Below are positions 42,940 through 64,000 of a stretch of 64,000 nt of DNA, one piece after another. Both the position numbers and the translations under genes were made by a program. The notes under the pieces were generated by a model that was not told the DNA's origin, did not search any database, and saw only the letters and a program-made list of their open reading frames with translations. The stretch spans positions 12,834,001 to 12,898,000 of the forward strand of contig OZ024751.1 of NCBI GenBank assembly GCA_964016885.1. Reading direction: 5' to 3'. Source of the DNA: Eledone cirrhosa. Its lineage: Eukaryota. The first letter of the stretch is position 1, and the number at the start of each line of letters is the position of its first letter.

Positions 42940-43700
42940 AACGGTAGAAAGTGATATCATGTGGCATTATTGTTATGCTTTGCGGTGGATTGGCAGTATC
43001 GGTAGAGGGTCGGACGCCATGCTTTCCAGCATAGTTACGTCCCTTTACGATCTGAGTTCAAATCCCGCCGAGGTTGACTTTGCCTTTCATCCTTACGGGG
43101 TCGATAAAATAAAGTACCAGTAATGCACTGGGTAATTGCTGGCCTTGTGCCTAAAGTAGAAACAATTATTGTTATGCTTTGCGGCATATAGTTATGGCCC
43201 TTTACGCTCTGAGTTCAAATCCAGTGGAGGTTAGCTTTGCCTTTCATCCCCCTTACGGGGTCAATAAAACATATTACCAGTCACGCATTGTGGTCGATTT
43301 AATCGACTTTCTCAGCTCCAAAAGAAATAGCTGAACTTGTGCCTAAATCAGAATACATTATTATTACTATTCGAAACCTACAAAATGAAGTACCAGTCAA
43401 AAACTGGGTCGATTAAGACATACATTCCGTCCCGACCTAAATGAGTTATTTCGTGCCTAATTATCATCTTTATTATTAGTTGTAGTATTAATATTATTAA
43501 GATAGTGGATTAATGGAATCATTTATGGACTGGGACGAGATACTTTAGTTAACGTTCCGAGCTCAAATCCCGCCTAAGTCAACTTTGTCTTTCATCCTTA
43601 CGGGGTGGATAAAATAAAGTACCAGTAATACACTGGGTCGATTTAATCGACTTTCCTCTTCCCCATAATTGCTGGCCTTGTGCCTATATTAGAAACGATT
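42940..43700 (+). mobile_element. Cluster of S1 SINEs including a nested insertion
   Basis: A young copy at about 42982-43169 is flanked by the direct repeat attattgttatgctttgcgg (42966-42985 and 43165-43184). Older copies extend to about 43360 and 43505-43700. Confidence 0.85.
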
Positions 43701-43941
43701 AATATTATTAATATGTACCCTTGTGGAAAATATTGATATCACCATTTATTCTGTCTAAGTATATATATTTATTTACACAAACTCACACACCACGTGTGTG
43801 TGTATTTCAAGTATCTACATATATTTGTACTTACCTACTTAGATTATTTCCTTAAACAATGAGATATGACACACGCAATATATATATGTATATATACATA
43901 CACACACACACTATATATATGTGTATATATACATACACACA

Positions 43942-43990
<49 letters not shown>

Positions 43991-43995
<5 letters not shown>

Positions 43996-44254
43996 TATTC
44001 TATTCTAGGGCGGGTAAAATTCCCGAGATCCATGACGAGTTCTCTCCAGCGGTCTCTGTCCCTCATTATCGATGCCATGTCCTGCGTCTCCAACAGACCA
44101 GTGTCTGTCCTTAGGGCATCAACATACGTTAACCTAATTGAGGTTAGCTGGACATGCTCACCGACATCCAGAGTTGACATTGCACCCAGTGCTCCTGTGG
44201 GAGCCCCTACATGGATACACTGGAAGAGGAAGACCAAGGTTAACGTATGTTGAT
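43991..44254 (-). mobile_element. Second copy of the same RTE-like LINE: 3' end with an inverted 5' segment
   Basis: About 44004-44135 is the reverse complement of about 15068-15200, followed by a (TAGAA)n tail. 44139-44254 matches 14970-15085 in plus orientation. Confidence 0.9.
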
Positions 44255-44482
44255 ATATATATTCCATAATATATATATTAGGAGTAAAGAGACATATAAA
44301 AGGTAAATATTATTTTAACGCTCAGGTGTGTGTGAGATACAGTACATAAACGTTTCAGAGAATCACCCTTCATCTGAGAGTTGAGAAAGGAAGAGAAAGT
44401 GTGTATAAAATTAGATTTACACACACACATATATATATTTATATATATAATGTACACATACACATATATATAATGTACACAT

Positions 44483-44575
<93 letters not shown>

Positions 44576-45430
44576 CCACACAGGAGTGGCAACAATTTTC
44601 TCCTAATAGATATGTATATACAAACACTATCTTATATATTGAGTACCTTTCTTTACTTTTATAAACGTCAAACTTTTACTAAACCTTTATATCTTCATAC
44701 GTTAGCATTATATACATTCATAAATATATATATAAATATATTTATGTGTATATATTTATGTGTGTATATATATACATATGTGCGTGCGTGTTTACAGAAA
44801 CATGTATTATTTTATATATACCCGCACACAGACACACACACATTATATACTGTATATATACTCACACAGACACACACATATATATATATATATATACTCA
44901 CATACACCACACACAGGCATTGTCAGTAGACAAAAGATTTATCTCATTCCACTTCTTTTTTTCACTTAGTGAGTGTGTGATGTAGGGTGATAGTTCTCGA
45001 CCTACTTACCCGTGTTATAACACCACCAAATCTACCCCCACAGTCACCCTCAACTGTTTATTATACCCGACAGAGCCAGTTTCAACCTAAACACAACACA
45101 AACCTTCTCTCTCTTAGACATAACTCCATAATAACTCACGAGTCACTAGTCTATTGAATACAACAGAACGTACAGCACCAGAGTAAAGTAAACACACATA
45201 CACAGAACAAGAGAGGCAGGCAGCATCAGCTAGCTAGCAAGAAAAGACCTCGCACACACGCACAATTGCAGTCCCGTTTAAACCGCACAAACTATTGTTA
45301 GCGATCAGATATTTTCATTTTCACTCCATCCAACCATCCATCCATCCATTCATTCAATCAGCCAGTCAAGGTTTCTTTCCTACTACAGCCAACCAGCCGC
45401 CGTATAGCGCTCACTCACTCCTATATATAT

Positions 45431-45612
45431 ATAGGAAAAAGTTTAACCCCGATGGCAGAGCTGAAGCCGTTTCGACGGCTATTTCTGGAAATAGCCGTCG
45501 AAACGGCTTGAACTCTGCCGTCGGGGTTAAACTTTTTCCTATTACCCACTCTACTACCCTAAGTATTGAGTACTCTTGTGCGTTATGGTCCATTTGGTTC
45601 CTTACCACACCT
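45431..45612 (+). mobile_element. Family A Penelope-like element: inverted-repeat head with a hammerhead 3' half, plus the conserved box
   Basis: Palindromic head at 45431-45542 containing GAAACGGC-ttgaactct-GCCGTC-GGGG, then ACTCTAC..GTATTGAGTAC. Related copies are at about 9866-10017(-), 17405-17513(-), 18891-19080, 23505-23655, 23887-24000, 31486-31545, 59431-59585 and 59610-59740(-). Confidence 0.7.
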
Positions 45613-45929
45613 CCTGCGTTATATATATATATATATATATGATGATGATGATGATGATGATTTCCTTGGAATGAAACAGTTCTAGTCCTGTAGAAGCCAT
45701 TTTTATATTAAATATTATATTTTGTATACACTCTACATTAGTAGAGTGTGAACAACAAATTTAATATAGAAATGGCTTCTACATGACTAGAAATGTTTCA
45801 TTTGGATGAAACTAGTCCTGTAGAAGCCATTTCTATATTAAATTTGTTGTTCATATATATAAATACATATATATATATAGATAAATATATTATAGATAGA
45901 TAGATAGATAGATATCCGTATATGGTTGG

Positions 45930-46045
45930 CGACTGAGGGAGCAGAGTACTCAATACCGAAGTATGGTTTAAATACTCATTTTGGTTCCTGTTTGATGACA
46001 TCGCGATAAAGTCAAAACTCCAGAGTAACAAGACTCACTATTTAA
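45930..46045. mobile_element. Family D Penelope-like remnant with a decayed hammerhead
   Basis: CCTGT-TTGATGA-CATCGCGATAAAGTC-AAAA-CTC-CA-GAG-TA-ACAAG on plus, with an inverted copy of the shared box upstream. A related copy is at about 50235-50320(-). Confidence 0.5.
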
Positions 46046-46429
46046 CCTTACTAAATTGAATACACACACACACAGGGTGTCTCAAATAAATGTATACACA
46101 CTTATAACCAAAGTGTGTATACATTTTTGGGACACCCTCTATATATATTAATATATATATATATATCGAGATATATTATCTACCACACGAAACCTTATAT
46201 ATTTATATATCAATGTATTTCTATAACTATTTACCTACCTATCTCTCACACACAGATATATCACATATCTATTTATTTATCTATATAGATATTATCTGCC
46301 CTTTGAAAGGTTGGCACCGTAGTAAAAGCTTATATTGTCTTTAAATTTAAACTGAAAGTAAATAAATAGATTCTACAATTTAGCCTGTATGGAGTCTTTT
46401 TTTTTATATGACTGGATTAAATATATATA

Positions 46430-46590
46430 TAAACAAATTTAAAATAGAAAGGGCTTCTACAGGACTAGAACTGTTTCATTCGAAGGAAATCACCAGGAAA
46501 AGCCTATATTAAATTTGTTGTATACACTCTACTAATGTATTGAGTACTTTACTTGCTGTGGTTACCCCCCGATTAAACCACTGACCCACA
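46430..46590. mobile_element. Family B Penelope-like element with a hammerhead motif
   Basis: Minus strand reads TTTC-CTGGTGA-TTTCCTTCGAAT-GAAACAG-TTCTAGTC-CTGTA-GAAGCC, followed on plus by the shared box. Related copies are at about 16210-16520, 17295-17390, 45652-45855 and 49461-49518. Confidence 0.65.
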
Positions 46591-46636
46591 CACACTAATA
46601 TACATATAATTCTCAAGATATATTACATATAATACT

Positions 46637-46674
<38 letters not shown>

Positions 46675-46763
46675 TAAATTAACGGAGCCAAAGACTCGCG
46701 TTATTCCCTGTCAATTATGTGCTCAAAGGAAACCTGAGCTCTTCAAATATATATATATATATA

Positions 46764-46932
46764 TAATTGTTTCTACTTTAGGCACAAGGCCAGCAATCAC
46801 CCAGTGCATTACTGGTACTTTATTTTATCGACCCCGTAAGGATGAAAGGCAAAGTCAACCTCGGCGGGATTTGAACTCAGATCATAAAGGGACATAATAC
46901 TCAAATATATATATATATATATATATAATACT

Positions 46933-46969
<37 letters not shown>

Positions 46970-46971
46970 CT

Positions 46972-47011
<40 letters not shown>

Positions 47012-47107
47012 TACTTTTTTGCACAAGGCCAGCAAATATTCCAGTGTATTACTGGTACTTTATTTTATCGACCCCATAAGGATGAAAGGCAAAGTTTAAC
47101 CTCCGCC
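46764..47107 (-). mobile_element. Two 5'-truncated S1 SINEs in TA tracts
   Basis: Tail plus core at 46764-46893 and 47004-47107. Confidence 0.8.
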
Positions 47108-48076
47108 CGTCACTCCCTCTATCCAGCAATCATGTTGTATCAATATAACTACTATTACTCTCTCTGTATCTATCTACTAGAGAAAGGGATAGGGTATTAT
47201 TTACACTGTAAGGTGTGGGTAATTGTGGTGAGGGACACTCAAACTTCTTTTATGTGGCACACACACACACACATACACCGTCTGTCTTTATACAATGAAG
47301 TGTAGGTGTTGTTTTCGTTGTAGTTGTTATACAGTATGTTCACTGGAGCATGGCTGACTGGGTAAGAGCAGGGAGGGTGGTAGGGGCTTGAGGAGTGGGT
47401 GGGGGTGATAGTGAATGTCTTACACTACACTACAACAACAACACTATATAAACAACAGCAGCTCTTACACAACTGATGATTATAAAAAAAAAAAGCTAGC
47501 AAGTTTCACCTTCCCTCATCCATAACCTACTTTTCATGTCACACACATTTAGGGGAGGGGGTATATATATATGAATGTGTGTGTGTGTGTCTATGTGTGT
47601 GTATTTCTTTGAATGAAAAGGCAATAACAACAGAAAAAAAGGCCTTTTTAATCCTTTAAACGAACCGAGGAGAAGAAAAGTGCATAAATCTACCCACCCA
47701 TTTCTCACTTTCTTAAGAACCCTCATCCGGAATATGAGAGAAATTCCCCGACACTTTTTACAGTCCCCGTGGAGAGAACGCTAGTCTAAAATATAAATAC
47801 GCCATTTACTTCTCCAACGTACAATTTTAACTAAATATAAAAGCAGTTAACCCCAGAATGCCCTCAGTCAATCGACTGGAACAATTAAAGATGTAAAAAA
47901 TAGTTCAAGCAACCGTAAGAATCCAATAATGTTGAGACTCAAGTTTTTTCTCTCTGATCCGTGGCGAACGGATGGCAACGAATTATCTAGTGCAACACCC
48001 GGATAGGACGCTAGTCATTATACATATTAAGTTCTCCATTTTCAAGAAACGGCAAGAGTCCCATCTATCCAATAAT

Positions 48077-48260
48077 TTTTTCTACTTTAGGTACAAGGCC
48101 AGATTAAATCGACCCCAGTGCATTACTGTGCTTTTATTTTATCGACCCCCGTAACGATGAAAAGCAAAGCTAACTTCGGCGGGATTTGAACTCAGAACGT
48201 AAAGGGCCGTACAGCTATGCCGTGAAGCATGGTGTCCGACGCTCTACCGATTCTGCCAAA
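48077..48260 (-). mobile_element. S1 SINE
   Basis: Core and B-box match the family; atccaataat occurs on both sides as a possible TSD. Confidence 0.8.
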
Positions 48261-49177
48261 TCCATCCAATAATGTAGAGACATAATTTAAATCAGTTTTT
48301 TCCTCTGATCTTCTGGCAAACGGATGAGAGAGGAATATCTATTTCACCACCTGGAAAGTGCGCTAGTCTTTATTCATTCATGTTAACTACTATAATAGTT
48401 TTAGTGTCTAATTGTAAATATTTCGTTAGTCAATAATCTTAAGAATCCAATAAAATCGAAGTTCGAACCTTAAGCAACGATTTTGACTGGGGCCACATTG
48501 AACTGTATTTATCATGCGAGACAATAATATATTATATGCTCATGGATGGGTCGACAGTCCGTCACACTTAACTTTCCTTTTCACCAAAGATTTACCATTT
48601 CAATTATCCATATAAAGATTGTAAATATATAAACACCTTATTACTTATTTTTGTTTTACATTTTGCCTTAGTATTTATTGTGCCCTACGCCTTGGGCCCG
48701 TGTGGTCCCGTGACCAAGGAAAGAAATTATTATTAGTTAAATCAATGAAGTGCGAATATAGGCTGTCCCCTTTAAAAAGGTATACATACTTCAACAGCAT
48801 TCTAATAAATATTGCCTGTAGAGGTAATCAAAGTGTGTGTACATTTTGCGGGGACATCCTGTATTTTCAAGCATTTTTAGATAGACAAAAAATGAAGACC
48901 CTTTGGCGAAAATTGAACCCGCATCACTATCAGTCGCCTATATTGTACCAGTAATGTACTGGGTCGATTTCATCGATTTACCCCAAACAAACCCAATCCT
49001 TGGTGGCCTTGTGCTTAAATCAGAAACCACTATTATCATTATTTAGTATTTATAATGAAAGATACGGAGGAAAGACGCACGACCCGATGAATGCGTGTGT
49101 ATATATATTTATGTGTGTGGGTGTATACATATATCTGTGTGTGTGTATATATATTTATCTGTGCATATATGTGTGTG

Positions 49178-49209
<32 letters not shown>

Positions 49210-49426
49210 AAGAATGGATGTGCTCATGCGGACAGGTGGTATAGGATAAATAACTTATAAAGTAAGTTGAAGACCATTAAAAAAAAAAAGGGGGGGACGG
49301 TGCCCCAGCATGGCCTCAACCGGGTGGGTGGAACAGTAAAAAAGTAAGTTGCCATCGGTCGCTATGCGGAATCGAACACCATATCATACATTATCTATAT
49401 AAATAAAATTCGAACGGTGTCCGCTC

Positions 49427-49466
<40 letters not shown>

Positions 49467-50453
49467 GACTTCTACAGGACTAGAACCGTTTTATTCAAAA
49501 GAAATCATCAGGAAATCATGTATATGGAGGCCGGAAAGACTGCTGGTGAGTACTACATGATACATGATAATGTAGAAGTACCGATTATATATAAATACAG
49601 GGGCGGTGGGACTGGGGGAGTCAAGGCCCCTTCGATAGTTATTTTACTCCCCAAACTACCAAAACACGTATCTATCTGTATATTCGCTACAATTAATGTA
49701 CGTTATATTTATATTTTTTTCATATATCTTGGTTGATATTTGATAATAAACTGCTAAATTAACCAAATATATATATATATATATATTTATATACACACAG
49801 GGTGTATATGTATACACACTTCAACATAAATATAATTAAAGTATATATACATTTTGGGGGGAACACCCTGTAATATATATATATATATACGCAGTAGTTT
49901 GGTGTAGAGTTGAAAACCGTGTCTAAATTTAGCCGCAGAGAATTATAGCAATGGCGCGAGATGTAGGGAGTTCGAAACTGGGTTGTGATTATGTCTCCAC
50001 CCTGGGTGGGTTGGTTGCTCGTTCCTTACTAGAAACGTCTAACTGCACAAGAAGAAATGAATGAATACCATATATATCTTTATAAATATGTATGTTGAGT
50101 GTGTGTGTATATGTCAAAATATTAACCAATATATATATATATATATGACAATACTGTCTTATTTATAACTAGATACGTGCACACACATAATATTATATGT
50201 GTGTGTGCATGTGTATGGTTGACTGCTGAGAGAAAGGAGTACTCAATACCACCGAAGTAGAGTTTTAATATTCATTTCATTGAGTCTTATTCTGGAGTTT
50301 CGCTTATTTATCACGCGTACCACAAAATTGTATACGTTCTTAGATTAAAAACTGTAAGGCAATATTTATTAGAATGCTGAAGTGTGTATACATTTTTGGG
50401 GGACACCCTGTGTGTGAAGTGTGTATACATTTTTTGGGGACACCCTGTGTGTC

Positions 50454-50635
50454 ATCATCATCCTCGTTTAACGTCCACTTTCCACGCTAGCATGGGTTAG
50501 ACGGGAGTTGTCCCACTTGAGGCAAGATTGGTCGGGAGACCGTGTCTCGCTTATATAGGACTATCTGGCATGTTTTCTACGGCTGGATGCCCTTCCTAAC
50601 ACCAACCACATTTACAGTGTGGACTGGGAACTTTT
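50454..50635 (-). mobile_element. SINE 3' portion with a (GAT)n tail
   Basis: Minus strand ends CCCATGCTAGCGTGGAAAGTGGACGTTAAACGAGGATGATGATG. The same tail occurs at 13-48(+) and about 36058-36090(+). Confidence 0.65.
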
Positions 50636-50739
50636 TACCGTGCTACCTATGTATATGTGTACTATATATATATGTGTGTGTGTGTGTACTATATATATAT
50701 ATGTGTGTGTGTGTGTGTATTAGTTATATATGTGTGTGT

Positions 50740-50802
<63 letters not shown>

Positions 50803-50989
50803 ACTATATACATAAGCAGCCTTAAAATTTCGTTGACATTAATGTTGATTGACTTCCACTATGCGCCGCCCGTAATTTAATAATTAGACAAATAGAGATC
50901 GATATCGATAAGATATAAAAATCGGGTTCAATATTATTAAAAACTTTGAAAACATTGGTCCAGTATGGCCGTATCACTATGACGGAACA

Positions 50990-51243
50990 TAAAGGGCCAT
51001 AACTCTGTGCCGCAAAGTATGGTGTCCGACTCTCTACCGATACTGCCAATCCACCGCCATAATAACAATAATTGTTTCTACTTGTGGCACAAGGCCAGCA
51101 ATTATCCCAGTGCATTACTGGTACTTTATTTTATCGACCCCGTAAGGATGAAAGGCAAAGGTAACCTCGGCGGGATTTGAAGTCAGAATGGCAAGGGCCA
51201 TAACTCTATGCGTCATAGTATGGCGTCCGACCCTCTACCGATA
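50990..51243 (-). mobile_element. S1 SINE head fragment plus an adjacent near-full copy
   Basis: Matches the family consensus. Confidence 0.8.
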
Positions 51244-51770
51244 ATAATGACGTTTGCTTTCTCTTCATAATAACCCTGATATGGACACACAGACACAATA
51301 TGCACAAATATATAGATAAAACACACACATACACACAATAATGTGTATATATCTATCATTTTCTTAAGTTTATCTAATGTGACGAACGTGTCTCCCTCCC
51401 CATTTATTGCAATGTCTTAAATGTTTTAACACATCTTACTTCATACATGACTCTCGTGCTACGAGGCACCAATCCTTTTCCTTGATGTCACACAAAATTC
51501 TATGTGTATTTAGCTTAATACCTTATAAATTAATGTTTTGTCTCTCGTCTCTTGTTCCACTTGGCAGCGTTTGGCTTATACCAGACGCTGTGACCCTGGG
51601 TGGACCAATAGTATCGTTGGTAGGGGTCGAAACTGCCAAAGTACATCTCAACAGCCGATGACCCTGGAGTTCTGTGTCTTTCGTTTGTCTTTTTTTTTCT
51701 AAAGATTTTTCGTTTTGTTTCGTTGTCTCATCATATCTTTGTTCATTTTCTTAAGTTTACACACACACAC

Positions 51771-51801
<31 letters not shown>

Positions 51802-52053
51802 AACACATGTGTGAGTGTGTGTCTGAATACATGCTTCTATATATTCGCCTCGCCCATTAATAATAATAGTCGTTTCTAATATAAGCAGAAGGATAGAAAT
51901 TGAAGTTTTACCGGGTAAAACCTGGCATTTTATTTTATCGAGCCCAGAAGGATGAAAGGCGATGTTGACTTCAGTTGGTTTTGAACTCGGGTTCCTATAT
52001 CCCGGAACAAATATCACAAGTCATTTGCCGCCTGCCCACCTCTCTAATGACAG

Positions 52054-52087
<34 letters not shown>

Positions 52088-52532
52088 GATGTGCGTGTGT
52101 TAAGTATATATATGTGTGTGTATGTAAGTATATATGCATAGATACACACAATATATATAAATATAATGCATAAAATCAGTGTTTATTTTGTAAAGCCCTT
52201 GTAGGAAAATAGCAAAATCGGCATTATTTTGCCTATTTAACTGGTCTCCTCTCATAGGAAATGTCTTGGGTGTTTTAGTGATAGACAAGTGATCATGACA
52301 AGCAACGTGAAAAAAAGCATTTTCCTCAAATTCAATGACACAACGCGCTGCCCAGGTCGCGAACCGAACTTTCGATCTTATGAACGGGAATTCAACATCC
52401 TAACCACTAGGCTTCCAGGGTGTGATGTGCACTCATAAACAGACTATTAATGTGAATAACTAAACAATTCAGGACCATTTAAATTTGATTTGACACACTG
52501 ATGATTTCTATCAAACACTTGAACAGTTAATG

Positions 52533-52735
52533 ATATTGCTTTCTGATTTAGACACAAAGGGGGAAGTCAATTGAATCGACCCAAGTACATTACTGGTACT
52601 TTATTTTATCGACTCTGTAAGGATGAAAGGCACAGTTAACCTCGGCAGGATTTGAAATCAGATCGTAAAAGGGGCGTAGCCCTATGCTATAAAGCCTTTT
52701 TTGTCCGACGCTCTACCGATAATGCAAATCCACCG
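52533..52735 (-). mobile_element. S1 SINE (diverged)
   Basis: Core actggtactttattttatcgac..ggatgaaaggc and B-box are recognisable. More decayed copies follow to about 53100. Confidence 0.75.
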
Positions 52736-53484
52736 TCCTTGAGCATTTAACGATATTAATAATTGTTTCTACTATTGTTAGCAGGCCAGCAAAGTCGAAT
52801 ATATCGACCTTAGTACTTAAATAGTCCTTATATTTTACCGAGCCGAGAATGAAGAAAGGCAACGTTTGTCTTGCCGCAGCAGGATTTGAACTTAAAACGT
52901 AAAGAATCTTAACTAAGCCGTACAAAGGGCCACGAAGAAGGAGTTCGTCAACCACTTCCCTACTTCTATATGTTATCAATCCTGGAAGAATGAAAAATTA
53001 AATTCACTTCACCGGGATTCAAACTCGGAACGTATACACCAAGAATCAGAACAAATACCGCGAGGTATTTCCGATCCTCTGCCGATTTCGCTATTATTCA
53101 AATCCTTTCATTTTATTAGCCACGCGGGTTCGTATATAGAATACAATAAATGTGTTTCAACTTTAATTTATCGACCCAAGAGGTGCGAAAATTCAGCTTA
53201 TTGGGATTAGAAGTCTAAACTATTAGAGTGTAATTAACTGATTAATAAAATAATTAATAAAATGAAATTATATATGTGTGTGTATATATATATATATATA
53301 GTATACAAGGATCGGAATTAAGAGTATTCTGCAGTTCACAGTAATAATAATAATATTAGCTTAAGAATAGAAGAATAGAGAATTTTCATCTGAGCTCAAA
53401 TACAAATATATTACACAGAGGGATAATTGTAATAATTCTTTACACACATCTCACTGTGTAACACTCTTCTCTCTGTGTAATATT

Positions 53485-53527
<43 letters not shown>

Positions 53528-54649
53528 GGGCCCCTCAAAAATGTATACATACTTTGATTACCTGTACAGGCAATATTTATTAGAATGCACAACCTTTCCC
53601 TCAAATAAAATGATCTACATACATAATTCAATTGTTTACCTAATTTAAATAAATAATGTATATAAAATAAAATTTATTTTAATGCATTTTTTAAAGATTT
53701 TGTTGTGTATACATTTTTTGGGGGACACCTTGTATATATATATATATATAATTTCACTGTATTTCGCACACCGTAACAATAATAATAATAATTATTATTA
53801 TTATAACAACAAACTATCCAGTACATTGTTTCCGACACAAGCAGTAATGAGATGTTGTGGGGTTTATGTGCTGTGCAGAAATGCAATATTTTAAAGCCCT
53901 CGGTTAATTTGTGTGAAGTGAAACGTGAGACAGAATCGAAACCATGACCCACGGGGAGCTGTTGGTTGGTCTGTCGGTATTCATTACTTGTGTTATTTCC
54001 AGAAAATAGAAATTTGGATGTTGTGACATTCATTCCTTTTTAGCATTGGTATATTTTACTAATAAGTTATTTGACTTAGGTGGGGGGATATACTATTTTA
54101 GAGTCGGGCTGAGATAGGCGTTGATGCGGTGGAGTTTATGCCTTGCCCAAACAAGAAAAAAGCCTGAACGAGCAAAGTAATGAGCCCTTACGTGATCGCA
54201 TAATCTGCTAGAAACAGCAGCTAAATCTCCCTCATAACAATGTACCGTCTTTAAACAAACACACAATATAGGATGAAATGAAACACGATGGTGGTCACGA
54301 CTAGAATGTCTTTAATCATAGGTCTGTTTGATCAGGGGTGACATAGTCTAAATAATGACTTCTAATTTCGAGGAAGAGATAATCGAGCATAACTGGTACT
54401 TTATTTTATCGAACCCGCGATGATGACATGCAAAAAAAAAAAAAAAAAAAAAAAAAAAGTTGACCTCGACGGTATTTGAACTCGCACTAAATACTGCAAA
54501 ATATTTTGTACGTCACCCTAACGACTACCAAATCGCCGCCTTGGTCTAAATAGTAACATAACTAAATAGTACTAAGAACAATTATTGACATGAGTAAATA
54601 AGAAATTGCTCTAGGTGAATCTAAAGACGAAATCGAAACCCCTGTGTAC

Positions 54650-55745
54650 TTTCGGTTTGCCAAGAAACCTCCTTACCTTTCTGCTCTACAGCGCCTGATT
54701 CCTGCAGTACTCCCGATTTTTGACGCTCGCTTTTTACAACGGCGTCCCACACGCTGTGTTTACTGTCTATCACTATCAGCTTGCTAGCTACCCAAGACAC
54801 CTTACGCCCTGCCCTCTGCTTTACAGCATCACCAGCTCGAAGTAGATACCCGAGACACCTTGCGCCCTGCTCTATAACGTCGCTCCCGCTCGTTGTAGCT
54901 ACCCAACATCCCGTTTACCTTCTAGTCTATCTAGCATCCCATTCACTGTACTTATTACCCTACTCTACGACGGCCGACTCGTTGTACTCACGGCTTGCCA
55001 ACAAACCACACGTTCTGCTTAACAGCTTTGATGTACTCTCAGCTGCCCAAAGAAACTTTCACGTTCCATTTCTGCGAAATTACCATACCAAGTATTCATT
55101 CCGTTTCATTCTACAATTCTACATAATTAATATTCTAAACTACTCAAGAGCCCTTACTTTCAATTCCACGGCTTCGTTGTATTTAGGGTTACTCAAGAAA
55201 ACTTACGTTCCACGCTACGGAAACACCGTACTCTGTTACGCAAGAAAATCTTACGCCCCGCTTTATGTAATTAGCGTACTCTCGGTTACCCCCAAAATCT
55301 TACGCTCCTCTCTATTGAAATACCGTTCTCTCAGTTACCCAAGAAATCTTACTTACGCTCATCCTCTCTATAGAAAAGCTGTTCTCTCGGTTAACCAAGA
55401 AATCTTACTTACGCTCCTCTCTATTGAAATACCGTTCTCTCGGTTACCCAAGAAATCTTACTTACGCTCCTCTCTATTGAAATACCGTTCTCTCGGTTAC
55501 CCAAGAAATCTTACTTACGCTCCTCTCTATTGAAATACCGTTCTTTCAGTTACCCACTAAATATTACGCTCTGTTCTGTTACCCAAGAAATCTTACTTAT
55601 GCAATAGGGAAATACCGTACTCTAAGTTACCCAAGAAATTGTACGTTCCACTCTATGTAAATGATATTAAATGAACCTTATGTTTTTCATTACGAAGTTC
55701 CATACGCTGCACTCTCGGATACCCAAGAAAACCTGCACCATTTCA
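54650..55745. repeat. About 53-bp minisatellite with a homogeneous core and diverged flanks
   Basis: Unit tacccaagaaatcttacttacgctcctctctattgaaataccgttctctcggt is near-perfect at about 55390-55550. The tacccaaga-like motif recurs about every 50 bp on both sides. Confidence 0.8.
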
Positions 55746-56446
55746 CACCAAAATTCCAGACAAATTATTTCTATAGTGCTGTTGATTTTATCATTATTAT
55801 TATTATTATTATTATTATTTCCTGTGCTTATATAATAATTTGAGAGAAATTGATGACAAAAATAATCAACATATCATAGCACACACACACGGAGATAACT
55901 AATTAAAAAAATGGAATTAGCAGAAACAGGAAAGACGTTATAAATGCGCCATAATACAGGTATACCAGTATACATTTTTGGTAGATTTATCTACATATAT
56001 ATATAAAGAATTAGTATATTTACTAACATATATATACAGATGCATACCTATGCCAGCAAATATATAGGTTTTGTCTTAGTAATATATATAACATACACAC
56101 ACACACATTAAAACTGAAAGTACAATTTTGATGACTACCTCGGGATGCCAAATTATTTTTTAAAGGAATTGCGAGTATTTTCCTAGTCACTAAAGAAAAA
56201 TTTCATCTGGAATACACACACACACATTATTCTCTCATACATTATATACATAGACATATATACACACGCACATATATTTTTCTCTTTAAAAATTAGATAT
56301 GTAAAGACATATGTATATAATATTCTCTCATACTATATATGAAATGAATAAATAACTAGGGTTAAATTACACTAGTAAAAAATATTTACGAACGTTTTTC
56401 AAATACAGAAGTACCATTTTATCTCGCTGTACTGAATTCTTCAGAT

Positions 56447-56482
<36 letters not shown>

Positions 56483-56681
56483 AATATATATATAAATATA
56501 TATATAAATATATATATAAATATATATATAAATATATTTATATTTATATATATATATGTGGGGGGTGAGTTTTATTGTAGCACAATAAATCAATGCAAAT
56601 GTCGGATAAGTAGCACTCTACAGTTTGTAGGACTGGAGTATAAATAATATAAGATCAAAAGATGGTTAAAAGAGTTCCAAG

Positions 56682-56753
56682 TATTTTATTATGCGCATTT
56701 CAAAAACAAAATATCATCATGGGACGATATCTGCGTTCTCATCAGATAAAATA
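56682..56753 (-). ncRNA. Type I hammerhead ribozyme, exact inverted twin of 56849-56920
   Basis: Exact reverse complement within the 144-bp inverted repeat. Confidence 0.8.
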
Positions 56754-56848
56754 GGGAGACATGATATGAAGCTTAAAAAACACTTGTTGTAGTGAAGTTT
56801 TAAATCAACTGCTCACAAGTGTTTTTTAAGCTTCATATCATGTCTCCC

Positions 56849-56920
56849 TATTTTATCTGATGAGAACGCAGATATCGTCCCATGATGATATTTTGTTTTT
56901 GAAATGCGCATAATAAAATA
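56849..56920 (+). ncRNA. Type I hammerhead ribozyme (Penelope-like terminal repeat)
   Basis: Stem I is TATTTTAT/ATAAAATA (8 bp). CTGATGA lies at 56857-56863, then a long stem II, then GAAA at 56901-56904. Stem III is the palindrome ATGCGCAT. The predicted AUA cleavage is after 56912. The base of stem II is imperfect (G-U). Confidence 0.8.
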
Positions 56921-57398
56921 CTTGGAACTCTTTTAACCATCTTTTGATCTTATATTATATATATTATATATATATATATATATTATATATACTCTGCTCT
57001 GTGAGAGTATCGAGTACTCAAACGGCCTACCCCATACACCAATTATATATATATGTATATGATTTTTGCGTTTCGCTTCGCCTTTCCTGCCCGCGAAATG
57101 TGATTTTCGCTGAATCTTTATTTGTATATATATATATATTGTGTGTGCGTGTGTACATATATTTTTAAATGTGTGTGTATGTAAAATATTTCTGTGTGTA
57201 TGTAAAATATTTCTTAGTTCTAAAGTGAGAACTTAATTTTAAGAAATATATTTCTTTACTTTTCATTATTTGATGTGAAAACCTATAATATCTACTCTCC
57301 TTAAGTATGGAGTACCTGCTGAGTTGAATAATAATAGCTTTTGCTTGCCCCAGTATGCGTGTGTGCGTGTGTGTGTGTATTCATGTATGCATATAAAT

Positions 57399-57435
<37 letters not shown>

Positions 57436-57450
57436 TGTATGCATATAAAT

Positions 57451-57493
<43 letters not shown>

Positions 57494-57511
57494 TGTATGC
57501 ATATAAATGTT

Positions 57512-57561
<50 letters not shown>

Positions 57562-57788
57562 ATGTATGCATAAATATATGTGTGCGTGTATGTATGCATA
57601 AATATAACAAATATGACTGATAATGGAGTGTCAAGAAAAGTTTATATTTAAAATTAATTATTTTTAGCTAGGAGGATTTTAATTGAAATGGAATGAAGAA
57701 TATTTACGCTATGTACATACACACACACACCCACACACACACATTATTTCTGTAAAATAGTTTTTAAATAATGGTGTGTGTGTGTGTG

Positions 57789-57832
<44 letters not shown>

Positions 57833-58042
57833 CACACACACACTCATTTTCATACCATATATATATATATGTGTGTGTATATAATTTACACACACACATA
57901 TATATATATATGTGTATATAATATACACACGTACATATATATATGTGTATATAATACACACAGACACACACACACATATATATATATGTATATAATATAT
58001 ACACACACACACACACACACATATGTGTGTGTGTGTGTATAT

Positions 58043-58104
<62 letters not shown>

Positions 58105-58429
58105 ATGCGATGAAATACCAATGATCGTTGGCAAATCACTGATGAGGGACTCATTTTATAACATGTTATCCATGTGCAACCATGCAGTATTCTTCTTCTT
58201 CTCCCAATATTTTTTAGATATATATATATATATATATATAATGTGTGTGTGTGTGTGTGCGCGCAGTAGGTTGTAACTAGCTATGGCATATCTTCACACA
58301 AATATGCAAATACAAAAAATACTAATTTGTGATTTAATATATATATATATATATATATACACACACTCTTTATTATAAACATGTATATACACTCGCATAA
58401 GCACAATATGATGCACATCGACACATGTA

Positions 58430-58762
58430 TTCATTCATTCATTTCATTTTACGTCCGCTTTTTCCTTGCTTGCAAGGGTGGGACGAGAACTGATTCTGGC
58501 TTGATTTCTACAGCTGGATGCCCTTCCTAACACCAACCTCATTTACAGTGTGTGCTGGGTGCTTTTTTGCCGTGGCACCTCCACGACCACTTTACAGTGG
58601 AATGATAGGGACCCCAGTCCCTATCATCTCATTTCTACAGCTGAGTAAACTGGAGCAATGTGAAATAAAGTGTCTTGCTCAAGGAAACAACACATCACCC
58701 GGTCTGAGAATTGAACTCACAACCTTTCGATTGCAAGGCCAATGCTCTAACCACTAAGCCAT
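58430..58762 (-). mobile_element. Composite SINE remnant: S2-type head plus a second-family body and tail
   Basis: 58630-58762 matches the S2 head. 58430-58600 (tttacgtccgcttttcc, ctggatgcccttcctaacaccaacc) matches 50454-50630, 1-48 and 9565-9650. Confidence 0.65.
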
Positions 58763-59184
58763 TAAGTGTGTGTTCAATGTTGAACACACACACGCATGCC
58801 TCCATATATATATATATGCATGCGTGTGTGTGTTCAACATTGCTTAAATAATATATAATATTCCCCAATATTTTTCCTACCAGGAATATATTTGCTCAGG
58901 TAGGTAATTGAAATATAATCGAAAGGGTAACTAGCAGAGTGTGTACATGTGTGTGAATGTGACTGTATGTGTGAATGTGTCTGTCTGTCTGTCTGTGTGT
59001 AGACATAGTGTGTGCTATGCACTAATTCTTGATGAAGATACGCACTAATTCTTCAAACAAAACAATGTCTTTTAAATTAGGTTACCCGCCCGATATACAA
59101 AATATGTCGTGTATATGTATATATATACATTCATTTATATATATACATACATATATAATATATATATATATACACACACACACG

Positions 59185-59220
<36 letters not shown>

Positions 59221-59366
59221 CATATATACACGTATATATATATATATACATACATACATGTGTATATTAGGTCTTGATTTTCCTCTAATACTCTACGTGG
59301 TTATTACCGACTATATTAAGTACTCTTCCCACGTGTCGAACACACTTAATGAGCCGACATAGTAGA

Positions 59367-59433
<67 letters not shown>

Positions 59434-59743
59434 GAAGAATTCGGGACCCCGACGGAAGAGCTCCTGTCGTTTCAACAGCTAAATCCGTCGGGTTCCCGAA
59501 TTTTTCATATTTCCCACTCTACTACCTTAAGTATCGAGTACTCTGATGAGTAATGGTCTAACTGGTTTTTACCGCTTCCATTCTGATATATATATATATA
59601 TAAAACGAAGGAAATGTGGTAAGGAACCAGATGGATCATAACGCACCAAAGTACTCAATACTTAAGGTAGTAGAGTGGGTAATAGGAACAAGTATGACCC
59701 CGACGGCAGAGCTCAAGCCGTTTCGACGGCTAATTCTGGACTA

Positions 59744-59803
<60 letters not shown>

Positions 59804-60751
59804 GTCGCACAGAAATATATGATTTCTCCCTTATGACATACGTGTATATATGTTTTTACCCTTACAAAAAGACACCCGCCCCGTTAAGTTTTGTAATATT
59901 TACTGTTTAAGATAAGTCTTAATATCTCATAGTTAGTATAATTTACGATACGACGGAAATATATTATAACTTAAGATATACCAGGCAACATCATATAGTT
60001 TATGACGAAAGAGTCATGTAATATTGTACAGTTTAAGTTGAGATTTGTTATATCTTATTATAGTTTAAGATGAAGCATAAATATTTTATAACTTATCATT
60101 AGTCTTGTAACATCATATAATTTATGATGAAGTATAAATAAATAAAGATCTGATTTCTGACAGTTTTCAATATCTACTTAAGAATGACATTGTTATCATT
60201 TCTGAATAACATATATCAAACTACTAATTTCTTTTATAATTTGACAAGACGACGAGGGAGAACAGGAATACAGATTTTTTAGGGATTAGTAGAAGCGTTA
60301 GAGCGTCAGACAAATAAATAAGTTCTGGGTCTTTACGTTAAGAGTTCAAATCCCTTCAGGGTTGGTAAATAAGATGTTCCCGTCCTTTCAACTCTTATCC
60401 TTCCAGGATAGGTAATATATATAACGCCAGCTCTTTAAATTCTGAGTTTAAATCTCGGGGCGCCCAGCGATCGATCGGCTTTGTCCTCCGTTCTTGCGGG
60501 ATCGATAAAATTAAATACCAGTCAAGAACTACTGGGTTTAATCCAATCGACTTTCACCTGCCCCTAAATTAAAAACTATCAATCTTTAGACGCGTGCCGT
60601 ATGTACTGGGGCTGCTTGTTAAAACTGACACTCACACGTGTGTGTGTATGTAGACAATGTATGTTTAACATTTGACTGTATGAGCACCTAATAACTGGTA
60701 GGACGAGTGTAGAAAAGTAACAGTAACATCGAAGTTTCAGCTTGTTTGCTT

Positions 60752-60888
60752 AAGAGATAGAATATATCTCAAGAGATAGAATATATCTCAAGAGATAGAA
60801 TATATCTCAAGAGATAGAATATATCTCAAGAGATAGAATATATCTCAAGAGATAGAATATATCTCAAGAGATAGAATATATCTCAAGA
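60752..60888. repeat. 19-bp tandem repeat, 7 perfect copies
   Basis: Unit aagagatagaatatatctc. Confidence 0.95.
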
Positions 60889-60897
60889 TTGCAATCA

Positions 60898-61150
60898 ATC
60901 TTAGCCGTGTGTATATTTAATGGTATTAAATTGATATATTTAATGTATTAAATTGATAAGCCCATAGCTGTGGAAACATCTATCGTCATGGGTCCCTGAA
61001 CCAACTCCCTACATAATGCAATCAAAACGGGAGATGGCCTTCCGTAATGACGAAACCCAAGAGATGGACTGGTGGGTTTCACCACATCTTCCTCGGTATT
61101 CTTCCGGGTATAAAATAAACGCATTTGGAATCATGTCTGCCGGGATCGTG
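60898..61150 (+). pseudogene. Decayed C-terminus of a restriction-like-endonuclease non-LTR retrotransposon (CRE/NeSL-like)
   Basis: Across stops and frameshifts it reads PIAVETSIVMGP*..KREMAFRNDETQEMDW..FHHIFLGILPG..NAFGIMSAG. This resembles the recalled PxAVETxGxxG...FQRxSxAxxRGNA motif. Confidence 0.55.
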
Positions 61151-61394
61151 AAGCAATATCTTCCAGTAAATTTATATTGTTATAGCCGTTTCCAAGACGA
61201 GTGGGGGAACCAGAGAAAACGAGAAAATTTTTTAATTGTTTTCAAGGCCATATTTGTTATAAACACAATTTAAAAATCACAGGAAAAACAAATTTCAATT
61301 TTAAAATTCTAACCAACCTTTTCAACTAACTTCCTGAATATTTTTAAAAACTATCTATTACACTCGTATCTAGGATGGGTGTAATAAAAATAAT

Positions 61395-61585
61395 TGTTTC
61401 TACTATTGGCACAAGGCCAGAAAATTACCCAGTACATTACTGGTACTTTATTTTATCGACCCCGTAAGGATGAAAGGCAAAGTTAACCTCGGCGGGATTT
61501 GAACTCAGAATGGCAAGGGCCGTAACTCTATGCGTCAAAGCATGGCATCCGAACCTCTACCGATACTGCCAATCCACCGCCATTT
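61395..61585 (-). mobile_element. S1 SINE, full length with a 16-bp target-site duplication
   Basis: gtgtaataaaaataat occurs at 61379-61394 and 61586-61601. Confidence 0.9.
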
Positions 61586-61858
61586 GTGTAATAAAAATAA
61601 TAATAATAATTTACTCATCTATCTATCTGGGGTTTTGCTAACGACAAGGCAGTTTTTGTTATCAACTGCAATCTATTAAAAAACTACACACACTTAACAG
61701 AATGAAACCTGCCCAGGTCAATATTTATATCTTCGAGGGTTTGATTGATTCTTCCTTATATATCACGCGGTAGCTTTCAGTCCCGATTTCTCTGGAAACA
61801 ATCCGCAATGTTCTGACATTGAAAGGGACACACACACTGCCTGGTTTAAAAATCCCAA

Positions 61859-62326
61859 GCCACGCCGTAAACCTCTACGGTAAGGTCCCGTCATATCACA
61901 GGCCCGGGAGGCCACGCCGTAAACCTCTACGGTAAGGTCCCGTCATATCACAGGCCCGGGAGGCCACGCCGTAAACCTCTACGGTAAGGTCCCGTCATAT
62001 CACAGGCCCGGGAGGCCACGCCGTAAACCTCTACGGTAAGGTCCCGTCATATCACAGGCCCGGGAGGCCACGCCGTAGACCTCTACGGTAAGGTCCCGTC
62101 ATATCACAGGCCCGGGAGGCCACGCCGTAGACCTCTACGGTAAGGTCCCGTCATATCACAGGCCCGGGAGGCCACGCCGTAAACCTCTACGGTAAGGTCC
62201 CGTCATATCACAGGCCCGGGAGGCCACGCCGTAGACCTCTACGGTAAGGTCCCGTCATATCACAGGCCCGGGAGGCCACGCCGTAAACCTCTACGGTAAG
62301 GTCCCGTCATATCACACGCCTGGGAG
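61859..62326. repeat. GC-rich 52-bp tandem array, 9 copies
   Basis: Unit gccacgccgtaaacctctacggtaaggtcccgtcatatcacaggcccgggag; an A>G variant occurs in copies 5, 6 and 8. Confidence 0.95.
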
Positions 62327-62539
62327 TTTTAATTCCTGTGACAGGGTATATATCAATAGTATACTCATATTAAGTATATTAACAGTGTATAATCAACATT
62401 CAACTATATTATATATATATATAGTATATATAGTATATATATATATATAGTATAATTATATCATTGAGTGAGTAGGTGACGGCCGGAGCTTAACCGATTC
62501 TCTTCGACTAGCTTCATAATATATGTGTATGTATATATA

Positions 62540-62580
<41 letters not shown>

Positions 62581-62864
62581 ATAAATATATATATATATAT
62601 ATATATATACATAAATATATATATATATATATACATAAATATATATATATATATATACATAAATATATATATATATATATACATAAATATATATATATAT
62701 ATATATATATTTTTATATATATATATATATATAGATATATATATTTTTATATATATATATATATATATAGATATATATATTTATATATATAGATATAGAT
62801 ATTTTTATTTATATATATAGATATATATATTTATATATATATAGATATATATATATATACATAA

Positions 62865-62895
<31 letters not shown>

Positions 62896-63086
62896 GATAT
62901 ATATATATATACATAAATATATATATATATATATTTATATATAGATATATATATATATATACATATACATAAATAGATATATATATATACATATACATAA
63001 ATACATATATATATATACATATACATAAATACATATATATATATACATATACATAAATACATATATATATACTTATATATATATAC

Positions 63087-63119
<33 letters not shown>

Positions 63120-63257
63120 GATATATGTATATATATACATAAATATATATATATATTATATATATTTATATATATATACATATATATACATACATATATA
63201 TACATATATATATACATATATATATTTATACATATATATATTTATACATATATATAC

Positions 63258-63332
<75 letters not shown>

Positions 63333-63504
63333 TATACATATATATATACACACACACATTCCTATAAGAAGAAATGACAAGCCGTGGTCGAGTGGTTTGA
63401 TATTCAGCTACTAGTAAATGTTTATCAGGAAGTTGATAATGGAGCTTTGTTATATTTATATATTTTAGACTTTAAAAAAATGAATCTACACACACACATA
63501 TATA

Positions 63505-63585
<81 letters not shown>

Positions 63586-63778
63586 TATATATATATATAT
63601 ATATATATTAGTATATATATATATATATATATATTAGTATATATATATATATATATATATTAGTATATATATATATATATATATATTAGTATATATATAT
63701 ATATATATATATTAGTATATATATATATATTAGTATATATATATTAGTATATATATATATTAATATATATATATATAT

Positions 63779-63897
63779 AAGGCGTGTGGCTGAGTGGTTA
63801 GAGAATTGGAGTCCCAATCGTGAGGTAGTGAGTTCGATTCCTGGACCAGGCGATGCGCTATGTCCTTGAGCAAGACACTTTATTTCACGTTGCTCCT
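63779..63897 (+). mobile_element. S2 SINE 5' half
   Basis: A-box TGGCTGAGTGG, B-box GAGTTCGATTC and GTCCTTGAGCAAGACACTT. Confidence 0.8.
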
Positions 63898-64000
63898 TCT
63901 ACCTGGAGTTGCGACCGATAGATAGTATTAGCAAATGGAAAGACCAACGGAAACGTTGTTTCCTTGGTCCGATTTGACGAAAGTCGATCGTCCAAAAAAT

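Follow-up and report, generated by a model that had tools for sequence, protein, structure and literature searches.

A hammerhead-bearing hairpin in a presumed NR2F intron of Eledone cirrhosa as a very probable two-armed 3'-end insertion of a Hydra-type Penelope-like element

What kind of element leaves a perfect inverted repeat with a hammerhead ribozyme in each arm, how does it acquire the second arm, and does the resulting hairpin matter to the gene in whose intron it lies? These questions are raised by a locus in a 64,000-nucleotide stretch of the Eledone cirrhosa genome (GenBank assembly GCA_964016885.1, contig OZ024751.1, positions 12,834,001 to 12,898,000; hereafter the window, in whose coordinates features are given). 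We conclude with high confidence that the hairpin arose by two-armed insertion of 3'-terminal sequence from a Hydra-type Penelope-like element into a (TA)n target in intron 1 of NR2F, that both cut DNA ends likely primed cDNA on one RNA, and that the insertion is likely neutral, with hammerheads predicted to be unfolded. The inverted layout, the tail and the idea of a dimeric ribozyme are already published, and the locus, as one of many stubs, matters little. The family to which it belongs is useful for an open question, the origin of inverted copies and one-sided tails in Penelope-like elements, since it includes copies with an intact frame of 821 codons and has two sharply defined 3' ends and a sharp hot spot at the 5' side.

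The host gene is read on the - strand. The best zf-C4 match of the whole genome lies 3.5 kb beyond the end of the window, in an exon that terminates in a GT donor and whose reading frame continues into a ligand-binding exon near 30,300. By its protein sequence we take this gene to be NR2F/COUP-TF. Its first coding intron runs from 67,500, outside the window, to 30,308 (about 37.2 kb), the part inside the window being 30308..64000, and the hairpin sits within it, as the first-pass annotation had presumed. Untranslated exons may exist upstream of the first coding exon.

The arms, at 56644-56787 and 56815-56958, form a perfect 144-bp inverted repeat around a 27-nt spacer and carry a type I hammerhead each, as first annotated; a second inverted-repeat comparison gave 149 nt at 99% when the AT run is included. 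The two motifs, in sense at 56849-56920 on the + strand and at 56753-56682 on the - strand, face outward, and the antisense copy therefore precedes the ribozyme on either strand, again in agreement with the earlier description. The left arm (56644..56787, - strand) is the 3' part of the element's pLTR and has its ribozyme in sense on the NR2F pre-mRNA strand (56682..56753, cleavage-site A at 56690). It is followed in the element RNA by a tail of about 85 nt (56556..56643, - strand), which is present on this arm only and which continues into the 5' UTR in full-length copies. The right arm (56808..56963, + strand) is a shorter pLTR copy without the tail; it stops, within (TA)n, at the shorter of the family's two 3' ends, and its hammerhead (56849..56920, cleavage-site A at 56912) is antisense to NR2F. 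An unpaired 5' extension of the left arm (56788..56809, - strand) stops 3-4 nt from the family's 5'-end hot spot, and the inversion junction at 56808..56809 consists of two bases common to both arms, that is, of microhomology.

Mapping on a natural copy, locus L048, places the left arm from 56809 to 56556 and the right arm from 56808 to about 56963, and both arms and the spacer are element sequence throughout. In the insertion copy L001 the arms occupy 1242-1495 and 1494-1649, of which 1242-1495 corresponds to reference 3419-3672. The originally proposed extent, 56644..57025, was thus too short on the left, where it omitted the tail (and the spacer is element too), and too long on the right, where the true edge is about 56958-56963, a position known only to this range and blurred by AT microhomology. 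Positions 56960-57025 are an AT run and a stretch without a second match in the genome search, and lie outside the element. The flanks are (TA)n-rich target sequence (56455..56555 on the left and 56959..56990 on the right), and a target duplication is unreadable because both insertion ends sit in (TA)n.

The repeat is not a chance fold. A search of the 3.0-Gb genome assembly with the arm gave 79 matches in 40 scored of 1,150 candidates, and for a 27-nt piece of the motif the exact matches number 17,206 (8,651 + 8,555), against none for its reversed control. A Penelope-like origin with linkage to a RT/GIY-YIG ORF had been anticipated, and the genome-wide arm search proposed for it has now supplied that link. 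Several arm copies have the end of an ORF located upstream, and the window sequence adjoins this ORF in 19 of 21 loci examined. Over 249 nt, the left arm with its flanking tail matches the 3' terminus of the ORF-bearing copy L048 at 96.4% identity, and its identity to copies with intact 821-codon frames is 88-89%; in a protein search with 340 aa of the ORF, 10 of 119 scored matches had such a frame open.

The element protein (800 aa from Met) shows RLRW, DKT, YRDD, CxCx5C, CxxC and CxH in the order of the Hydra clade, with the nuclease last; DKT lies at residue 123 and CxCx5C, CxxC and CxH at residues 659, 759 and 787, the motif definitions being taken from the available text of Craig et al. 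(2021; PMC8557442). The CCHH motif is absent inside the GIY-YIG core, where the translations, inspected by eye, hold one cysteine only. Pfam returned no domain match in the protein, and five matches of a PDB sequence search (E 0.76-0.81) were rejected. Fifteen homologues were found at 33-38% identity, and in the neighbouring Atlas clusters 25-38% of members carry HTH_animal, with GIY-YIG and RVT_1 lower down. The features of EN+ Penelope-like elements are all present: a single RT plus GIY-YIG ORF linked to the repeat, partial pLTR tandems, inverted 5'-truncated copies, a one-sided tail and a hammerhead motif within the pLTR. The copies examined are flanked by (TA)n, which is the target preference of the Hydra clade. 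The hairpin is accordingly placed as the putative 3' end of a Hydra-type Penelope-like element, a clade placement that rests on motifs, and its family was matched here to none of the named families.

As far as the clade is described in the available parts of PMC8557442, the likeness is close: RT and then GIY-YIG in a single ORF, DKT, the CxCx5C linker, CxxC/CxH and no CCHH, with (TA)n targets and a type I hammerhead near the 3' end. The same source describes inverted 5'-truncated copies, often with the tail at one end only, together with (TA)n bias and hammerheads, and its supplement lists, besides an octopus Hydra family (Hydra-1_Obim), an inverted, 5'-truncated copy of Penelope-13_HM that has a hammerhead on each strand. 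Several features differ. The unit, at about 3.7 kb, exceeds the 'generally <3 kb' of Hydra units; the tail measures about 85 nt compared with 30-40 bp for published EN+ Penelope elements; stem II has 15-16 pairs compared with 3-7 in the Hydra rows of File S2, its closing pair is G-U or A-U, and stem III has a 6-nt palindromic insert. At the N-terminal position of RWK the protein has RLRW followed by T or I instead of K, and the hammerhead listed for Hydra-1_Obim is another sequence. Within our own sample, L058-L063 form a sister subfamily in which the 821-codon frames are intact and the pLTRs nearly identical; it is likely the most recently active branch.

The first-pass annotation had treated the hairpin as something special, and this is not supported: the layout is in print and recurs by the thousands when extrapolated. 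Among the first 100 listed matches of the 27-nt piece, all 15 pairs no more than 400 bp apart are back-to-back, as are 29 of the 34 pairs no more than 7 kb apart; extrapolation from these 100 matches, which lie on one contig, gives about 2,600 short back-to-back pairs genome-wide. Exactly one tail is present in 25 of the 29 back-to-back pairs (P=5e-5 against 50%), which were drawn blind to tails; three have two tails and one has none. Of these four exceptions, L146 consists of two separate one-tail pairs, an arm of L119 continues into a tandem copy, L128 carries duplicated host flank and L138 is unexplained. A larger set (125 of 146 loci, 21 being left out as duplicates or window neighbours) has one tail in 60 of 66 short pairs, part of this sample having been chosen by tail or arm queries. 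L128 (G000:C1:24999900-25000970) and L004 are inverted pairs without any tail; the host flank of L128 is duplicated on both sides, which suggests a later DNA fold-back.

The arm ends are sharp. Of the 241 arms in the 125 loci, 100 have the same 3'-terminal base and 119 terminate at the tail end inside a five-base range. At the 5' side, 61 of 132 ends fall in a 14-base stretch, 28 of them at one base (17 of 30 fall in this stretch in the 15 unbiased short pairs), and eight of 132 fall at the stem II hairpin. Junction positions vary among loci. The arms of one locus mismatch at 53 of 893 subfamily-variable sites, compared with 40% for shuffled partners (lowest 31%, 200 shuffles), so both arms come from one source. 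It is the strict one-tail rule (25/29) and the single-source arms that give the family its residual interest; the long/short-end pairing rule is stated nowhere in the literature searched, with subscription papers mostly outside the search.

How could such a product arise? In the route outlined here, the GIY-YIG domain would nick both strands of (TA)n, and RT would start at two fixed internal RNA sites, one for each DNA end. Each of the two cDNAs would preferentially end about 60 nt upstream of the hammerhead, probably where the RNA begins or at a palindromic ATAT joint, and they would then join by microhomology. We propose tentatively that the family preserves an unusually clear record of Penelope insertion, in which each target end primes on its own fixed site of one RNA, yielding a long and a short end, and the cDNAs run off at the RNA 5' end, some 60 nt upstream of the hammerhead. 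The order of events is unreadable from DNA alone. The closest experimental system is the Poseidon element of Anolis carolinensis, for which Frangieh et al. (2024; PMC11167929, available text) report in vitro that both strands are cut and extended and that two RT start sites bound the tail. The two fixed 3' ends bounding a tail, the AT-rich targets and a hammerhead upstream of the tail are shared with the present family, whereas Poseidon belongs to another clade, its tail of 30-40 nt lies inside the ORF start, and that text mentions no strict rule by which inverted insertions combine a long end with a short one.

A different order of synthesis, which we consider rather unlikely, is that a single cDNA folds back on the palindromic CATATG or on the stem II hairpin and is copied, the nuclease resolving the second end at the other fixed site. 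Such a snap-back would fit the perfect or near-perfect palindromes at the hot spot in L120, L131 and L124, the eight arm ends at the stem II hairpin and the common source of both arms of a locus, and PMC8557442, in its available text, ascribes the tail to nuclease-mediated resolution. Against this, a copy of a short-ended cDNA cannot gain a tail, and many junctions, including that of the window copy, are staggered by tens to hundreds of bases; the cutting and extension of both strands and the paired RT start sites of PMC11167929 also speak against it. If instead priming by each end on its own site is true, the commonest product of the element would be a ribozyme-silencing hairpin, and the element would in this way seed dsRNA sources by the thousand, which could restrain it.

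The age of the insertion bears on both its origin and its significance. Between the arms of other inverted pairs 173 of 5,932 ordinary sites differ (about 2.9%), and zero differences in 144 at that rate have P of about 0.015 for an average copy, so that the hairpin is young for its family. The earlier description of the insertion as very recent stands in this relative sense, but it is tempered by a private 3-4 nt change in the spacer and left-arm extension, found in no other locus compared, and by closest other copies that are only about 96-97% identical over arm and tail. Arm-to-arm gene conversion was considered as a reason for the perfect match and set aside, since compared with 141 other hits the arms have no private substitution. 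Each of four tail differences is shared with 9-24% of copies. Youth is the simpler explanation, because the arms lack private substitutions and the tail differences are all shared.

Identity of the arms over 144 bp is also compatible with an assembly artefact or with a later DNA fold-back of a single-arm insertion, either of which we regard as very unlikely. The junction at the NR2F locus rests on the genome assembly. Four short-read runs (from at most two samples) gave no junction-bridging contig at 99%, which speaks neither for nor against the junction, and their assembly at 90% likeness mostly gathered other family copies; further, L128 shows that fold-backs with host flank exist. In the window copy, however, the arms end at two different family ends and the flanks are not duplicated, and dozens of loci repeat this layout at different junctions, their arms differing by 0-7%. 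The two-armed insertion remains the preferred reading.

The hammerhead in each arm has an 8-bp stem I, CUGAUGA, GAAA, the palindrome AUGCGCAU and an AUA site, with a stem II of 15 pairs, one C-U mismatch and one bulged U. The core CUGANGA...GAAA...UH with its three helices is present, stem III comprising 2-3 bp as a monomer. The proposed covariance-model search, run with Rfam, did not detect it: no family gave a match at gathering score in the whole window, and the 29 matches at E<=10 in 56500-57200 were microRNA-type hairpins and other unrelated models, none of them a hammerhead, and were rejected. Also, the core is intact in 78 of the 106 arms that span it, and pairing in the stems is kept in 97.6% of cells in an alignment of 95 arms (91 of them distinct, with 11 identical arms excluded). 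Copies are abundant, and all nine common stem variants (at least five rows) keep the pair, compared with nine of 45 rare variants and 25 of 46 possible transitions (P=0.004, the copies being related); covariation, on the other hand, is one-sided only (G-U/A-U, C-G/U-G), its two double-change pairs being equalled in 117 of 500 shuffles. The pair-keeping common variants are indicative of selection on the ribozyme strand in source elements, and hence of selection on the fold.

Folding predicts that the ribozyme is masked, as had been proposed. In the NR2F strand the duplex between the arms wins outright (-262.8 kcal/mol, mean pair probability 0.997, stem I probability 0), and the sense hammerhead is predicted to be fully paired to the antisense arm. 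Two isolated motifs are predicted to form a dimer by strand swapping, its stem III being 8 bp long, consistent with the suggested dimerization through the palindrome. The extra U in stem II of the window copy occurs in seven of 95 rows and is predicted to pull G8/A9 into stem II (probability 0.85-0.95, compared with about 0.2 for G8 in three-U copies). By this modelling the window hammerhead would be masked by the duplex and misfolded even alone.

For Penelope-like hammerheads in general, Cervera and de la Pena (2014; PMC4209133, available text) describe a palindromic helix III, a proposed dimer and poor cleavage in vitro. The present motif agrees in being type I, with a palindromic helix III, a predicted dimer and an enlarged helix II, and low in vitro activity is to be expected of it as well; it differs in a helix II about twice their 6-8 bp and without the conserved G10.1-C11.1 pair. 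The hammerhead of the anole element depended on protein, and insertion in vitro did not require the ribozyme (PMC11167929, available text). The hammerhead here likely serves the element's own cycle as a dimer or a protein-assisted ribozyme, not the host gene.

Could the hairpin nevertheless have been co-opted as a switch, or as an editing or small-RNA substrate, that regulates NR2F? In the pre-mRNA the arms would form a 144-bp duplex, which might undergo editing or dicing as other hairpins of intronic repeats do, and the position in the first coding intron and the very stable predicted duplex are in favour of such a role. In transformed Drosophila, inverted repeats of Penelope yield siRNAs (PMC3681739, available text); those copies are likewise able to form dsRNA. 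We find co-option highly improbable, given the roughly 2,600 similar pairs extrapolated genome-wide, the distances of 10.5 kb to the donor and 26.2 kb to the acceptor, the presence in the same intron of a second fold-back insertion and of some 50 further inverted matches of at least 50 nt, the youth of this copy for its family, and the extra U predicted to draw G8/A9 into stem II. No evidence of any effect of the hairpin on NR2F was found, and it is likely a neutral passenger. Should the family's duplexes be transcribed, ADAR and Dicer would meet an increased dsRNA load, an effect known for inverted repeats in general.

A MITE (DNA transposon remnant), for which the long terminal inverted arms, the absence of an ORF and the TA target would speak, or a retrozyme unit, suggested by a hammerhead inside a non-coding repeat, is practically negligible, since the repeat is directly linked to the RT/GIY-YIG ORF, the arms are unequal with variable junctions, single-arm and ORF-linked copies exist, and in place of ORF-less tandem monomers, of which no array of the unit was seen in the loci compared, the tandem copies are separated by an ORF.

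Other repeats of the same intron carry similar motifs. The second fold-back, at 39374-39937, has arms at 39374-39558 and 39760-39937 that are identical at 168 of 178 positions, and a hammerhead at 39635-39587 (- strand), in sense to NR2F. This motif is predicted to fold because it lies in the loop, outside the duplex, and the second fold-back is the better predicted candidate for cutting of the pre-mRNA than the 144-bp hairpin; its stem III likewise suggests a dimer. Its family has 1,768 candidates and forms tandem units of about 433 nt in L157/L158, which are retrozyme-like. A third hammerhead-like motif (41518-41585, + strand, antisense to NR2F) belongs to an older repeat family with 1,960 candidates, the best other copies of which are 76-84% identical.

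Next to the insertion, 56987-57043 is a 57-nt island between AT runs without a second match in the genome search and is not part of the element. Neither is 57044-57125, a repeat of about 70-80 nt between (TA)n with 2,278 candidates, possibly the end of another (TA)n-targeting element. A tandem array with a 53-nt unit, its central copies 90-95% identical, occupies 55253-55644, and an assembly gap of 200 N lies at 20229-20428. Open frames at 14501-15196 (+ strand) and 25959-25252 (- strand) resemble the 3' parts of non-LTR retrotransposon ORFs, and are presumably RTE-like and L2/Tx1-like. Elsewhere in the genome, at G000:C6:25133438-25150264, an open frame of 2,931 codons and its neighbours hold about a dozen tandem zf-C4 matches, a possible array of nuclear receptors with multiple DNA-binding domains.
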